Assembly (NCBI GenBank): GCA_964494835.1
Contig: CAZBSW010000001.1
Coordinates: 1 to 30,152 of the forward strand
From: an uncultured Thermotogae bacterium
GTDB lineage: Bacteria; Bipolaricaulota; Bipolaricaulia; UBA7950; UBA9294
Direction: 5' to 3'
Length of the DNA: 30,152 nucleotides
Shown: piece by piece, positions 1,511-30,152 of the stretch
Numbering within the stretch: the first letter of the stretch is position 1
Layout: each line of letters begins with the position of its first letter
The notes under the pieces: model-generated
Told to the model about the DNA's origin: nothing
The model's input: the letters and a program-made list of their open reading frames with translations, nothing else
Databases searched by the model: none
Translations under genes and position numbers: made by a program

Positions 1511-1576
1511 TACCGCCGTCGCTTGGCAAAAGGGTTCAAGAGCACTCTCCACCTCCTCGCAACAACAGGAACCCTC
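1511..1576 (-). repeat. Repeat A copy 1: 3' end of recombinase gene plus foreign arm
   Basis: 1511-1559 matches 7280-7328 at 43/49 nt (encodes EEVESALEPFCQATAV); 1561-1576 (aacaacaggaaccctc) matches copy 2 but not the recombinase. Confidence 0.9.
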
Positions 1577-1587
1577 CCGAGCCTCAA

Positions 1588-1617
1588 TTGACTTCCTATT
1601 TGCCATGTGCGTATGTT
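1588..1617 (+). promoter_or_regulatory. Putative sigma70 promoter of cassette gene
   Basis: TTGACT-N18-TATGTT, upstream of RBS AAAGGAGG and ATG 1658. Confidence 0.4.
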
Positions 1618-1657
1618 CTCTGTGATGTGTTCTGAGGATGGTATCAAAGGAGGACAA

Positions 1658-2674
1658 ATGAAAGGACGACGAACAGTCATGTTGGTCGCGGGGCTCCTGG
1701 TGCTTATTCTCCTCAGTTGGGGATCAGTTGCCAAGATTACGATGACGGACGCTGCCAAAAAGCGCTTTGCCGATAATGCCGTATACAAACAAGCTTTGGA
1801 GATCGTTAAGGAACTGGGCGTTGAAATAGAGACGTTACCAGACGGCACTGGTGTTTCGATGACGACCACTTGGGAACGGCTCGCGACTGCCAAGATGAAC
1901 GGCAAGGATTATGAGGTAGTCCTCGATGTCGGCGACGGCCATCCATGTTTGATCTACCAGACGCTCACGGACACTACACCTACAGGCGTGAGAATCATAT
2001 TTACATCTATGGGTAGAATGGGCTGGGGAGAGGTCAACCTCCAAGCAGAAGGCGCAGCAGACGAATTGGCGCGCGTCTTGTACAGTTTCTTGCGAGAGGC
2101 TGTGCTTCAACGCGAGTGTTGGGAGAGACAGACTAACCCGCAAGCGGGGAAGTGCGCAATTGAAGCGGCAACTCCTTTTGCAAACGACCAGCTGCTCGTG
2201 ACCGACACCCACTATGCCCTTTTCGACCAGGCGCTGACGGAACTAAGAAAGCCCACCCTTGCCGTCCTTGAAATAACGACGAAGACTGCGGCGGGGCCTA
2301 CGACCAAAACGATTTCCCCGGGGGTGTCTAAAGTCACGGTCACGGCTGGAGATGAGATACGCTTCGCTGTGTACGGTCCTCTGAATCACCAATACACGGT
2401 ATTTCAGTCCATTCTTCTTGCGAATAAACCAGAAGATGCAGATGGATACCTTGGCACCAAGACAGGCCTCTGTGAGATAAGGAGTCTGCCAATCGTGGGT
2501 GTATTGGGCATCAGTGGGGCTGTCTTCACGTATAGCGTGCCAACGACTGACGCCTCTGGGAACCCTCCGGCCGGTAAGTACTACCTACAGGTCGCGATTG
2601 CCAAAAGCGATACGACGTTCGCTACTGCAGGAGACTGCCATGTGACGAACATCATCGAGATCGTGGTGAAGTAG
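1658..2674 (+). CDS. Hypothetical exported protein (signal peptide), sole gene between repeat A copies 1 and 2
   Basis: Strong RBS before ATG 1658; MKGRR + hydrophobic stretch + SVA|K cleavage-like site; Thr-rich, beta-sandwich-like C-terminal part; no family recognised. Confidence 0.75.
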   Translation: MKGRRTVMLVAGLLVLILLSWGSVAKITMTDAAKKRFADNAVYKQALEIVKELGVEIETLPDGTGVSMTTTWERLATAKMNGKDYEVVLDVGDGHPCLIYQTLTDTTPTGVRIIFTSMGRMGWGEVNLQAEGAADELARVLYSFLREAVLQRECWERQTNPQAGKCAIEAATPFANDQLLVTDTHYALFDQALTELRKPTLAVLEITTKTAAGPTTKTISPGVSKVTVTAGDEIRFAVYGPLNHQYTVFQSILLANKPEDADGYLGTKTGLCEIRSLPIVGVLGISGAVFTYSVPTTDASGNPPAGKYYLQVAIAKSDTTFATAGDCHVTNIIEIVVK

Positions 2675-2816: not shown

Positions 2817-2850
2817 AGTTGCGTGCGACGCCATTGGTCTATCTTAACAG

Positions 2851-3825
2851 CTATCGGGGCTGATTTGCTGTGTATTCTCGAACATCCATCTTTGAATCCT
2901 CTGCGAAACGAGCTACGAGGTTCGGTGTTCGTGTCTGCGATGGTTTGCAACAGTCGCCGGCTTGCTTCCAGACTAATTCAGAAAATGGATGGAAAGAACC
3001 CGGAGCGATGGGCACAGATGGGCGCCAGTGATGATATACTAAGGCGTTGAGCCTCATGCCAGGATTATCCATGCTCTGTGTATAGAACCAATTGCACCAG
3101 ACGACCGCACTGACCATATCATGTGTGAGATTCCCGTACTCATCAGGAAGGAAGAAACTGCCGGGGGTATGAAGCCCCTGTATCGCCCATGGGAAGTTCT
3201 CTTCCAAGTTCGGATCTCCCATTGAGGCACCATAAAGAGCCAGTTCAGCGTCTCGCGACTTGACACGGTGATCGCCCGGGAACACGAAGAAGACCAAAGG
3301 ACTGCCCGTCTCTTTGTACTTCGTGTACTTCTCAGAGAGGCGATCTGCGATCTTCTTAGCCTTATCCCCAGCGTCTGTGTACCCGCGATTGTCCCAGGGC
3401 CAAAACGTTCGGCTAGGAGTGAAAGACATGAATGCGTCAGCAAGGAAGATCTTATCATCAATCCGGAAAGAAAGGTCTGGGCGCAGGTCTCCGTAATTGG
3501 TCGGGTGGTATGTAGGATGGAGCATAAGCCTGTGTAGCAACTCATATGCAACAAACTCTCGAAGGTTGGCTGCGAAGTCGGTTTCATCATTCCTTGTAAT
3601 CCCATTGAGGAATGCTGTTCTCTGTGACACAGAGAGACGCTGGAGGGTCTTCTCAAGGACCCGGAGAGTTTCCATAGCATCTGCATCTTCCTCCGATACT
3701 AGCCACGCTATGGCGGGCCATCTATCCTTCACAGCAGTCAACGCATCTTGCAAAGTATTCATCCCAGGCTCCATTCTACCGGACATCGGAGCAAGCTTGA
3801 TACTTGTTCCGTAATTCCTTCCCAA
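2851..3825 (-). CDS. Hypothetical protein, possibly PD-(D/E)xK nuclease-like
   Basis: 324-codon ORF; real start may be ATG 3762 (GGAG upstream). REFVAYELL...RPDLSF...FLADAF...EKYTKY loosely resembles the PD-(D/E)xK core. Confidence 0.6.
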   Translation of the reverse strand: MGRNYGTSIKLAPMSGRMEPGMNTLQDALTAVKDRWPAIAWLVSEEDADAMETLRVLEKTLQRLSVSQRTAFLNGITRNDETDFAANLREFVAYELLHRLMLHPTYHPTNYGDLRPDLSFRIDDKIFLADAFMSFTPSRTFWPWDNRGYTDAGDKAKKIADRLSEKYTKYKETGSPLVFFVFPGDHRVKSRDAELALYGASMGDPNLEENFPWAIQGLHTPGSFFLPDEYGNLTHDMVSAVVWCNWFYTQSMDNPGMRLNALVYHHWRPSVPIAPGSFHPFSELVWKQAGDCCKPSQTRTPNLVARFAEDSKMDVREYTANQPR

Positions 3826-3950
3826 ATCTGAATCAAGTCTGAGTATATGGTCATCCTAACTAGGATATCGGTCCGGAACAGCTTCGTTATAGTTTCTCTC
3901 ACCAGTCTGGAGTGACCCCCTAAGACTTGACTGGTGGAACTGGAAGTCAG

Positions 3951-4320
3951 TCCGCTGCACGTAGCGGTGCGCCAACGGTTGAGCTTGGACGGTGGTGAAC
4001 ACATGGTCGCATTAGCCACACTGCGCCGCCTGGCGCTCTCTCCAGCTTCTCAGGCGGTCGATATCGGCCTCAGCCACCCAGAGGTACGATCCCCCCCCCT
4101 TGCTCCCTTTGCCTTGGCGAACTATTAGCTTGCCCGTGGTGAGATTGAGGTCCTGCCACTTCAAGGCGGTCACTTCTGCTACTCGAAGACCAGTGTTGAG
4201 CATTAATCGGAGCATAGTCCCGTTACGCTCACCGGTGGGGTAACGAGGGTTAGGCTGCTCCAAGAGCCGCTCTTGTTCCTCTTCTGTCAGAACTGTAGGG
4301 AGAGTTTTCGCCCTGGGCAT
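3951..4320 (-). pseudogene. Truncated paralog of the tyrosine recombinase (N-terminal ~60%)
   Basis: MPRAKTLPTVLTEEEQERLLEQPNPRYPTGERNG...GLRVAEV is near-identical to 7268-7864; G9 tract at 4091-4099, CAG>TAA stop at 4012-4014, homology ends after YVQR at 3951; lacks HxxR, H and Tyr. Confidence 0.9.
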
Positions 4321-28053: not shown

Positions 28054-28674
28054 CTAGTAATCTAATCGGATCGTAATAATGTCGTCTGTGCTACCGGTGA
28101 GGGCGCCCGACGAATTCACCCACTCGACTGGGTCTGTCTCGCTCCCGACCGACGTGGACCAGGCCTTGTATTTCAGAAGGTCGACGATCCCGTGTGCGGT
28201 CGAGCCGTCGATTACGAAGTAGCGAGAGTTCCCGTCCGTGTACGAGTAGGGCACGTTATTGCCGCGGATCTCATGCACATAGGTCCAAGCTCCCCAGATA
28301 TTGGCCTGCGTTTGCCGCGCATAGAAGTACTCGACGCTATCCTCGGTGTCGTTGAGGCGTGCTTCAAAGTACGTGTTCGAGAAATCGCCTCCGTCCCACG
28401 TGGCTGTGAACGTTCGGGTTGCTGCGTTATAGTTGCCGGTTCCGGACCAGAACGTTGTTCCCACTATCCCTGCATGTGACGTTCCATCGGACTCCGAAAC
28501 CGTCGCGGCAAGGTGAAATTCCATGCGGCCGCTGACCACGGTGCCAGCGCCGCCTGTGCCTCCGGTTCCTCCGCCTCCTGTGAACGAATTGATGAGGTTG
28601 TCCAACAGGTCGCAGCCACTCAACAGGGCTACAGCAACCACGAGCAGTCCGACCATCAATAGCTTCTTTCGCAC
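28054..28674 (-). CDS. Hypothetical lipoprotein
   Basis: GTG 28674 after GGAGG; lipobox LSGC; Gly/Thr linker; beta-rich body. Confidence 0.75.
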   Translation of the reverse strand: MRKKLLMVGLLVVAVALLSGCDLLDNLINSFTGGGGTGGTGGAGTVVSGRMEFHLAATVSESDGTSHAGIVGTTFWSGTGNYNAATRTFTATWDGGDFSNTYFEARLNDTEDSVEYFYARQTQANIWGAWTYVHEIRGNNVPYSYTDGNSRYFVIDGSTAHGIVDLLKYKAWSTSVGSETDPVEWVNSSGALTGSTDDIITIRLDY

Positions 28675-29362
28675 ACTGTCCTCCTTCCCCTTTACCTCAC
28701 GGGCATAGCATCGCCCACCTTGGCCAGGATAGCGAATAGAACGTGGATTTGCAATGAGAAGATGCTTGTAATTTGCTTGAATAGGGTGTTCTGGAAGCGG
28801 TGAGGCGTGAATCGAGTGACACATACCGCATTTCTTCCCCGTTTGCTGGGGTCTTCGGGAAAGGGTTACCTACCGACAACATCTTGAGTGAGTTGCGTGA
28901 GGGAATACCAGCAAACGGTGTGGCAGCTCCGATTGCCCATTCGGGATGAAATGTGGTATGTGTCACCGGATTCCTGTGGAGAAGACCTCAGGGAAACTGT
29001 GGTCGCCAAGCTGTGACCCGACTCCCGGAACGTGGGATCGGCCCGGCAGGCTAAGGATTGCGCGATCGACCAGGGTGCGAGCAAAAGGTTCGGGCGGACA
29101 GTCCCCTGCGCGCTCCCCGAAGGGCGATGGGGGATGGATGATAGCTTCGAGTGTCTCCGGGATAAGGCGAAGCTCACGTTTGTCGAAGCGACCCCGGATC
29201 GGTATACTGGTTTCATGATGCGCGGTACACGAGGAAGCATTCGAGGAGAACTGAATTTGGCAAGCGTCTTCGCTTCCTCATGCCGTGTGCGTAGTATGAT
29301 GATGGATAGCTCCACTCCGTCTCGGTAGCGATTACCGGTCTGCCGAGTTGGAGTGGAGGATC

Positions 29363-29398
29363 GAGGCTGCAGAATGTTCTGCGGTCTCATTTTCTTTT
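29363..29398 (+). terminator. Intrinsic terminator inside the leader of the Cys/Met enzyme gene
   Basis: GAGGCTGCAGAA/TTCTGCGGTCTC stem (2 G-U pairs) + ATTTTCTTTT, ending 31 nt before ATG 29430. Confidence 0.75.
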
Positions 29399-29429
29399 CC
29401 GGCAAAGGAAAGAACGGGAGGAGAAGCTG

Positions 29430-30152
29430 ATGGACACCAAGTTCTCGACGCAGTCAGTACACGCAGGGGAGGAGAAAGGCAAACCCTACGGCGCTGTGGC
29501 GACGCCGATCGTCCAGACGTCGACCTACGCTTTCGACAATTCGGCGGAGATCATGGAGTACATGCGCCGGAAGGCATTGAGCGACCCCCACGCGCGAGAG
29601 GAGTATGCCCGGTACAGCAATCCGACGCAGACAGTCGTGGAACGGAAGCTCGCCGAGCTGGAGGGCGGTGAGCAGGCGCTCCTTTTCGCCAGCGGGATGT
29701 GCGCCATCACAACGACGATCCTCTCCCTCCTGTCGAGCGGTGACCACGCCATCTTCCTGCATCCGTGCTATCGCCGTACAAGGGAGTTCGCGGACCAGTA
29801 TCTCCCCCGGTTTGGAATTGATTCCACCGTATTGCCGATCGACGACGCCGATTCTCTGGAAAGCGTGATTCGCCCCAACACGGGGCTCATCTTCACCGAG
29901 ACGCCGACCAATCCGCACTTGCGCCTTGTTGATCTTGAAGAGGTCGCTCGAGTTGCCAATGCTAAAGGCTTGCTGTTCGTCGTTGATTCGACCTTCGCCA
30001 CGCCGATCAACCTGAGGCCACTCGAACATGGAGCGCACATCGTGATTCACAGTGCGAGCAAGTACCTCGGGGGGCACAACGATCTTCTTGCGGGCGCGGT
30101 GATCGGCGACGGGGAGCGATTGGAGCGGATCGAGGCGTGCAGAGGTGTGCTT
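29430..30152 (+). CDS. Cys/Met metabolism PLP enzyme (cystathionine gamma-synthase/lyase family), partial
   Basis: VHAGE, TPIVQTSTY, YARYSNPT, FASGM, TETPTNP, VDSTFATP, HSASKYLGGHND (PLP Lys); RBS GGAGGAG; runs off the window. Confidence 0.95.
   Translation, partial: MDTKFSTQSVHAGEEKGKPYGAVATPIVQTSTYAFDNSAEIMEYMRRKALSDPHAREEYARYSNPTQTVVERKLAELEGGEQALLFASGMCAITTTILSLLSSGDHAIFLHPCYRRTREFADQYLPRFGIDSTVLPIDDADSLESVIRPNTGLIFTETPTNPHLRLVDLEEVARVANAKGLLFVVDSTFATPINLRPLEHGAHIVIHSASKYLGGHNDLLAGAVIGDGERLERIEACRGVL

Follow-up and report, generated by a model that had tools for sequence, protein, structure and literature searches.

Introduction

Bacterial methionine genes are controlled by MetJ and MetR, by S-box or S-adenosylmethionine (SAM) riboswitches, and by T-boxes; to our knowledge, methionine is a conspicuous gap among the leader-peptide attenuators. 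This study concerns an RNA leader in an uncultured Thermotogae bacterium of the Bipolaricaulota. The DNA analyzed, referred to as the window (30,152 nucleotides; contig CAZBSW010000001.1 of GenBank assembly GCA_964494835.1), is the entire contig of a 74%-complete metagenome-assembled genome. Near its end, three tandem methionine codons (MMM), a hairpin, and an intrinsic terminator precede a gene for a Cys/Met-metabolism pyridoxal phosphate (PLP) enzyme. The comparisons described below make it very likely that this unit is a methionine-sensing, ribosome-mediated transcription attenuator of a methionine-biosynthesis operon.

The enterobacterial trpL, hisL, thrL, leuL, pheL, and ilv leaders likewise consist of a short open reading frame (ORF) with codons for the end product and a terminator ahead of the operon. 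Their hairpin probably synchronizes polymerase and ribosome, as it may here, and the Trp, Thr/Ile, and Phe/Tyr specificities of the sister leaders found in the same genome are classical ones. The window leader differs in its methionine specificity, its predicted leaderless ORF, the position of its sensor codons upstream of the hairpin, the lack of an antiterminator, and the lack of an Rfam model. Translation from the 5' end of the transcript, as predicted here, is a property of Actinobacterial leader peptides (Streptomyces and Corynebacterium trpL, leuL, and ilvL; PMC1262725; PMC8079986), but those belong to another phylum and have no sequence relation to the present leaders, which always carry a canonical terminator and a second hairpin at a fixed spacing. 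For Streptomyces lividans, a leaderless 'metL' with scattered Met codons and no clear terminator has been proposed before metNIQ (PMC8079986), the one such proposal that our search returned. No RNA element was found for methionine genes in Actinobacteria (Seliverstov et al. 2005, PMC1262725), and PMC2965389 mentions no methionine leader attenuator. Our literature search returned no tested methionine leader-peptide attenuator, and none of its top-ranked papers spoke of consecutive or tandem methionine codons.

Two further systems are relevant. In the Escherichia coli pyrBI and pyrE leaders and in occlusion of the terminator tR2, a nearby ribosome blocks a terminator without any antiterminator, which resembles the principle proposed below; the 27-nt reach measured at tR2 fits the leader geometry. 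In pyrBI, however, the leader ORF extends into the terminator, and polymerase pausing at low UTP serves as the signal, whereas the ORFs described here end 29-52 nt upstream, stalling would be codon specific, and proximity would be achieved through a folded hairpin. The SAM-I and SAM-II riboswitches (RF00162, RF00521) control the orthologous gene in other lineages and have the same role, shutting it off by means of a terminator when methionine or SAM is plentiful. In contrast to these, the window leader has no aptamer and would sense charged Met-tRNA at the ribosome rather than SAM.

Results

Architecture of the Leader

The leader and the gene that follows it comprise these features, numbered as in the window:

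29180-29208, plus strand: predicted sigma-70-type promoter from a consensus scan; -35 TTGTCG (29180-29185), 17-nt spacer, -10 TATACT (29203-29208)
29215-29328, plus strand: predicted leaderless leader-peptide ORF, 37 codons plus stop; ATG at 29215 and 29218, C-terminal part ...RVRSMMMDSSTPSR, stop TAG at 29326-29328
29215-29295, plus strand: Z domain, a long imperfect hairpin over the first 27 codons in minimum-energy folds; basal helix of 29215-29227 (including the start AUG) with 29281-29292 (just 5' of MMM)
29296-29304, plus strand: three tandem Met codons (putative sensor codons), ATGATGATG; codons 28-30 of the 37-codon frame
29305-29362, plus strand: hairpin 1; core 29310-29358 (CTCCACTCC/GGAGTGGAG and an inner stem) plus a GAU/AUC extension
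29363-29398, plus strand: intrinsic terminator; 11-bp stem 29363-29373/29378-29388, loop ATGT, T-rich tail ATTTTCTTTT
29416-29423, plus strand: Shine-Dalgarno (SD) sequence GGGAGGAG of the structural gene, read from the sequence
29430-30152, plus strand: 5' part (241 codons) of the Cys/Met-metabolism PLP enzyme gene (Pfam PF01053, E = 2e-72), cut by the contig end

The ATG run, the TAG at 29326-29328, the hairpin, and the terminator were all recovered where a preliminary description of this DNA had placed them. In the window, hairpin 1 begins 5 nt past the last Met codon, and its 5' arm contains the leader stop codon, just under the apical loop. From the end of the terminator tail (29398) to the ATG of the gene (29430) there are 31 nt, mostly SD sequence, and GGAGG-like motifs comparable to this SD precede all orthologous genes. 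The fold of 29280-29432 has an energy of -65.4 kcal/mol (z = -5.0), which none of 200 shuffled sequences equaled. Although ATGATGATG occurs 42 times in the 2.14-Mb assembly, the window copy alone has a terminator after it; such an arrangement lies far outside what chance would give. A search of the leader against Rfam gave no match at the gathering threshold and, at E<=10, just a terminator-like scrap.

The frame in which MMM would be read was assessed in 44 non-redundant leaders of the family. In the window, the ATGs at 29215 and 29218, both in frame with MMM, lie 6 and 9 nt past the -10 box; in relatives the -10 box lies 8-10 nt before the leader start, at exactly 9 nt in 28 of the 44. The start codon is ATG in relatives and GTG once, an SD-like motif precedes it in 3 leaders only, and the distance from start to MMM (69-81 nt) is always a multiple of 3 with no intervening stop. 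The start is always in the MMM frame, and all insertions and deletions are multiples of 3. These features suggest that the leader ORF is translated without an SD from the 5' end of the mRNA, start and promoter both being predictions. The preliminary description had noted the missing SD as a difficulty. The SD is indeed absent, as would be expected of a leaderless ORF starting right after the -10 box, and on that reading the difficulty falls away. The same description had read the frame as MMMDSSTPSR or as the end of a longer ORF, and this reading gives way to the 37-codon ORF from 29215 or 29218. The 98-codon ORF (29032-29328) and other long intergenic ORFs were considered as genes and set aside: they have no Pfam match, and the upstream part is unconserved and holds the predicted promoter.

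Conservation in the Bacterial Family

To place the leader in an evolutionary context, a protein search was run class-wide over 184 species genomes, which represent the whole phylum, and gave 19 clear orthologues of the PLP enzyme at ~52% identity or more. All 12 orthologues from the same family carry ATGATGATG (once ATGATGATGATG) 115-165 nt upstream and have a hairpin and then a terminator after it, so that the Met run and helices that the preliminary description proposed to look for are kept throughout. One orthologue in another family retains the Met run, with a different hairpin and no clear terminator, and the run is absent upstream of paralogues (<=47% identity). A relaxed pattern (ATGATG plus the terminator motif) matched 19 genomes of the family, every one with three ATGs; outside the family it gave two chance matches (G002 and G060), and a reversed control pattern gave none. 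A strict scan of metagenome contigs yielded 38 matches, 33 of them true members. The three Met codons are invariant in 44 of 44 non-redundant family members, one relative having four, although the metagenome pattern required ATGATGATG, and conservation of the run is therefore tested by the orthologue-based and relaxed sets alone.

Comparison of these leaders recovers one common anatomy. The peptide is unconserved between genera except for MMM, while its N-terminal 27 codons are conserved within genera. Of all parts, the terminator evolves most slowly, and 5 of the 11 pairs in its consensus structure show compensatory changes. The arms of hairpin 1 vary between genera yet stay complementary, for example CCACUCC/GGAGUGG in the window and CCGCUUC/GAAGCGG in relative L202. 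RNAalifold on MAFFT alignments recovered the terminator only, hairpin 1 being out of register between genera, and for this reason per-sequence folds and shuffles were used instead of formal covariation. By this measure, hairpin 1 has a median energy of -27 kcal/mol (z = -4.3) in the 44 leaders, starting at MMM+14 and ending near MMM+59. The Z domain has the same median energy (-27 kcal/mol; z = -2.2), with a median of 9 of the first 12 nt paired to the strand preceding MMM. One may speculate that this 5' hairpin, which pairs the start AUG with the strand ahead of the sensor codons, allows just one ribosome, acting co-transcriptionally, to translate the leader.

Sister Leaders in the Same Genome

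The strongest support for attenuation by Met codons comes from the window genome itself. Its conserved terminator motif has nine matches in the assembly, and at least seven of these belong to leaders of the same build: a promoter, an ATG a few nucleotides on, a long 5' hairpin, a codon run, a 4-7-nt spacer, a stop-bearing hairpin, and the conserved terminator. The sister leaders lie on other contigs of the window genome (G000) and are listed with the downstream gene where Pfam identified one; the pairing of leaders with codon runs follows the order in which they were recorded.

C199 (L253), about 3445-3640, minus strand: W-Y-W leader; anthranilate synthase I (trpE)
C193 (L252), about 2830-3020, minus strand: T-T-T-I-I leader; homoserine dehydrogenase
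C118 (L249), 1-125: F-Y-Y-Y-F leader; type I chorismate mutase
C126 (L251), about 2400-2585: W-W leader; family-5 binding protein
C121 (L250), about 3770-3960, minus strand: W-Y-W-F leader
C142 (L254/L219), about 1530-1720, minus strand: hydrophobic-run leader; LivJ-like binding protein

The terminator stem GRC-YRY-RGR ... YCYGNRGTC is common to all sister leaders of the genus, and terminators of this family occur in 11 of 11 genomes of the genus, one to six in each, with zero control matches. Rfam gave no match on the sister leaders. The binding-protein paralogue of the window genome has a leader of the same build, in which I-T-F within a hydrophobic run takes the position of MMM, and hydrophobic or aromatic runs occupy this position in binding-protein leaders of about 20 relatives. 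Codon identity at one fixed position thus tracks the pathway of the downstream gene, which is hard to explain unless these are sensor codons, and the MMM unit would be the methionine member of a sister attenuator set.

Contig C126 of the same genome (L251) also contains, at about 640-830, a leaderless 10-codon ORF (MMQHPHRELN). After it come a long structured region and a variant form of the family terminator, and an aldo/keto reductase gene begins 323 nt farther on.

The Regulated Gene and Its Link to Methionine

The preliminary description had assigned the gene to the cystathionine gamma-synthase family. The assignment stands at the level of PF01053, but it does not extend to a subfamily, as all NCBIfam subfamily models (cystathionine gamma-synthase, sulfhydrylase, gamma-lyase) score below their cut-offs. 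Evidence for its role comes from gene order and from the regulation of orthologues. In relatives an aspartokinase gene lies downstream of the PLP gene and overlaps it, and in one genus aspartate-semialdehyde dehydrogenase comes next. An Rfam search of 20 related loci found a SAM-I riboswitch in 11 (Anaerolineae-type records), and a SAM-II riboswitch is present at one orthologue from another family of the same class. Orthologues behind SAM-I and SAM-II riboswitches and an operon leading into aspartokinase indicate that the gene is biosynthetic and methionine repressed. In the lineage of the window, the riboswitch found at the orthologous gene elsewhere appears to have been replaced by the MMM leader. 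Covariance models for the SAM-I riboswitch and the T-box gave no match in the window or in the whole 74%-complete assembly, although both gave matches in control genomes (Bacillus subtilis and others); the earlier observation that neither motif is visible is thereby borne out, and the Rfam scan it had called for reveals no riboswitch.

Seven genomes and about ten metagenome contigs have a second type of MMM leader, whose N-terminal peptide is related, ahead of a LivJ-like substrate-binding protein gene. Between the terminator and the binding-protein gene of L150-L153, L158, L159, and metagenome relatives there is another small ORF, which has an SD of its own and begins MMY..; it overlaps the start of that gene (TAATGATG; in L150 the ORF is at about 1610-1675), which suggests that control has a second stage, at the level of translation. 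One genus has, in its MMM-controlled operon, a 380-codon ORF (L198:10421-11560, L201:7839-8984) that directly follows aspartate-semialdehyde dehydrogenase. It has no Pfam or NCBIfam match and is either a methionine-pathway protein of a new kind or no gene.

The PLP enzyme of one genus of the family (L062-L074 vs L036-L041) is 65-74% identical to the Anaerolineae type and ~60% identical to that of sister genera. These identities hint at gene transfer, with possible replacement of a riboswitch by an MMM leader or the reverse.

Leaders of other kinds were seen at the same gene. About 110-170 nt upstream of it, L042-L045, L047, and L049 (another family of the same class) contain a conserved leaderless 17-codon ORF (consensus M..(R)RYLM..) in which CGATATTTAATGC hardly varies. 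Only one of its internal codons is Met, and neither an obvious terminator nor an Rfam match accompanies it; it is possibly another kind of Met- or SAM-responsive leader. In L118 (Bellilinea caldifistulae NZ_LGHJ01000011.1) and L113, the region about 150-270 nt upstream holds an ORF of 38 codons, seven of them Met (..LMAMMMAMVM..). A terminator comes next, and its 3'-arm sequence CAGGCAGC recurs within the ORF. No SAM riboswitch was detected at this leader, which is a candidate for a classical Met attenuator in a cultured Anaerolineae species. In L072 (record label 'uncultured Eubacteriales bacterium'), a 16-codon upstream ORF ending ..GRMIM precedes a hairpin and a terminator and appears to be a further, independent Met-containing leader in the place of the riboswitch.

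On the other side of the window leader, the divergent neighbor (28054-28824, minus strand) encodes a lipoprotein-like protein (..LLSGC signal) without a Pfam match. About 350 nt (28825-29179) separate this gene from the predicted leader promoter.

Leader Folding and Geometry

Compared with trp/his-type attenuators, the locus has clustered cognate codons ahead of a biosynthetic operon, in a frame whose translation is predicted, and an intrinsic terminator between the leader ORF and the first gene. It has no antiterminator exclusive with the terminator, its regulatory codons do not lie inside region 1, and neither the window nor the whole assembly matches a SAM riboswitch or T-box model. The preliminary description had taken the hairpin as region 1:2 of a trp-type switch with a weak 2:3 antiterminator. 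This assignment is unsupported, the Met codons lying 5 nt upstream of the hairpin, and the 2:3 pairing finds no support in the window or in 50-odd relatives. Constrained folds, which that description had proposed as a check, were computed for full-length and truncated transcripts of 12 orthologous leaders and of sister leaders. The terminator is the minimum-energy fold whether the RNA is free of ribosomes or a ribosome occupies the Met codons or the stop codon, with no gain of a 2:3 helix in any state. Positional stem grids compared with block-shuffled controls revealed no conserved alternative stem, and a sliding duplex scan against the terminator 5' arm revealed no consistent partner. Region-pair complementarity was significant for the three native helices only (z = -1.7 for the 5' end with the pre-MMM strand, -3.4 for hairpin 1, and -5.1 for the terminator). 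Several further contacts were considered by eye and dropped: a mimic of the terminator 3' arm in the Z domain, pairing of the 5' end with the terminator 5' arm, a kissing contact between loop and terminator, and a T-box-like tRNA contact.

Conservation lies instead in the spacing of the elements. In nearly all leaders, sister leaders included, 4-7 nt separate the end of the codon run from hairpin 1, and the spacer is 5 nt in 23 of the 44 MMM leaders (range 0-9). The ribosomal helicase unwinds RNA to about +11 to +13 nt from the P site; with hairpin 1 starting at MMM+14, the hairpin lies at the leading edge of a ribosome that has the third AUG in its A site. This geometry indicates that a stalled ribosome would leave hairpin 1 closed and that a passing ribosome would open at least its base. 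The linker from hairpin 1 to the terminator is about 0-9 nt. If hairpin 1 is folded, 1-18 nt of single strand (median 11) separate the last Met codon from the terminator; measured linearly, the terminator stem is about 58 nt from the last Met codon and 29-52 nt from the stop codon. The stop is at MMM+12, +21, +27, or +30 and, in MMM leaders, never less than 29 nt from the terminator stem. In sister leaders the distance from stop codon to terminator, counted by hand, is 27-37 nt.

Discussion

Alternative Explanations

A classical trp/his switch would consist of hairpin 1:2, a weak 2:3 pairing (TCTGC/GCAGA or GTCTCGG/TCGAGGC), and terminator 3:4, with a ribosome stalled at MMM freeing region 2. 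The leader ORF, hairpin, and terminator do occur in the classical order, both of the named pairings, of 5 and 7 bp, exist in the window, and the segment at MMM+15 forms the best duplex with the terminator 5' arm (-11.3 kcal/mol), although in the window sequence only. However, a ribosome on the third AUG merely abuts the hairpin, which begins 5 nt beyond the Met codons, and leaves it unopened. Even with the whole 5' arm masked, the terminator is still the minimum-energy fold in all leaders. Across 7 lineages, the complementarity of the hairpin 3' arm, loop, and 5' arm to the terminator 5' arm does not rise above shuffles (z = -0.6, 0.0, and +0.3), and no alternative stem is positionally conserved; a switch of this type is improbable. 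Slightly better placed, but still unlikely, is a toggle in which the 3' end of hairpin 1, rich in purines, would have two alternative partners: the pyrimidine-rich 5' arm while the ribosome is stalled, and the U tract when the ribosome passes. In the latter state it would lengthen the terminator stem like an A tract, so that translation beyond MMM would make termination stronger. Freeing the 3' arm does take the terminator fold of the window from -16.9 to -27.9 kcal/mol, 6-11 extra pairs form in 8 of 13 PLP-type leaders, and the 3' arm and linker look purine rich by eye, also in sister leaders. The extension nevertheless consists mostly of G-U and A-U pairs driven by base composition, and in binding-protein-type MMM leaders and some others it is non-contiguous or amounts to 0-4 pairs. 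The core terminator, with 11 bp and a U tract, should already be efficient, and the toggle predicts high expression from an untranslated leader, which is unusual for attenuators.

Two other explanations dispense with sensing by codons. If the short ORF were an independent small-protein gene or the locus a small RNA, with the PLP gene expressed by leaky readthrough or from another promoter, the folding results, which predict the terminator in every state, and the conservation of the N-terminal 27 codons within genera would be accounted for. Yet the 31-nt gap between terminator and gene is mostly SD, the unit is always directly upstream of Met-related genes, the peptide beyond MMM is unconserved between genera, the codon runs of the sister leaders match trpE, hom, and chorismate mutase, and the long ORFs lack a Pfam match, all of which makes this explanation very unlikely. 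A ligand- or protein-binding RNA, such as a SAM or Met riboswitch of a new type or a protein operator, in which AUGAUGAUG is an RNA motif rather than codons, has the least probability of all. It would suit the position of AUGAUGAUG in a single-stranded linker between two helices and the unusual conservation of the terminator stem and the hairpin loop motif GGUAGCC. No Rfam family matches, however, and, MMM and terminator apart, the helices share no conserved nucleotides between genera, while reading frame, start codon, and stop codon are all maintained. The W, T/I, and F/Y codons that fit their operons at the same position in sister leaders would remain unexplained by an aptamer.

Proposed Mechanism

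Met-codon-dependent attenuation, as the preliminary description had suggested, is favored by the conserved order of MMM, hairpin, and terminator, by the riboswitch-controlled orthologues, and by the pathway-matched codons of the sister leaders. Transcription would start at about 29215, and the mRNA, opening with AUG, would need no SD for its translation. The pioneer ribosome would read 27 codons and reach the three Met codons, 5 nt before a very stable hairpin. With ample Met-tRNA, it would enter and open the hairpin, stop at the UAG 34 nt before the terminator stem, and leave; with the ribosome gone, the terminator would form and transcription would end at about 29390-29398. With scarce Met-tRNA, the ribosome would be held on the Met codons and the polymerase would read through into the operon.

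How a ribosome held at MMM prevents termination is the least certain step. In E. coli, termination at tR2 is repressed by a ribosome standing at a stop codon up to 27 nt away; at a distance of 5 nt the efficiency has dropped below 0.1, from about 0.9 (PMC4824070). Together with the folded path of 1-18 nt, the 27-nt reach leads to a bridge proposal, in which the closed hairpin keeps the stalled ribosome within ~11 single-stranded nucleotides of the terminator base, and the bulk of the ribosome would keep the terminator stem from being completed at the exit channel of RNA polymerase. With the hairpin unfolded, a terminating ribosome is just beyond the 27-nt reach. We put this bridge forward tentatively. 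Slightly more doubtful still is its extension to the whole lineage family (Met, Trp, Thr/Ile, Phe/Tyr, and hydrophobic leaders) as antiterminator-free attenuators with a rigid hairpin bridge set between the edge of the stalled ribosome and the adjoining terminator, a mode of action not known to have been described for attenuators, where a ribosome that has passed the sensor codons would unzip the bridge and halt just beyond the occlusion distance.

Several points weigh against methionine attenuation as proposed here. Since the terminator is kept in all ribosome states, thermodynamics alone predicts constitutive termination, and the bridge model draws on geometry and on one E. coli study of linear spacers. 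Methionine starvation should also reduce charging of the initiator tRNA, which a leaderless sensor needs. Methionine gamma-lyase is among the best NCBIfam matches of the PLP enzyme, below its cut-off; if the enzyme were catabolic, the presumed direction of control would be wrong. Finally, the metagenome set was found with a pattern that itself demanded the Met run.

Implications

The same gene is riboswitch controlled in other lineages and, on the reading favored here, codon controlled in this one, which makes it a clean natural replacement. The module is reused at least seven times in the genome with differing sensor codons, providing built-in specificity controls. The lack of an antiterminator and the fixed spacings yield a falsifiable proposal for suppression of a terminator at a distance by a stalled ribosome. 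If true, the leaders would represent a modular, codon-programmable attenuator in which a change of specificity needs a change of the sensor codons only. The family could then be used to annotate the amino-acid regulons of an uncultured phylum, for example the ligand class of the LivJ-like binding proteins.

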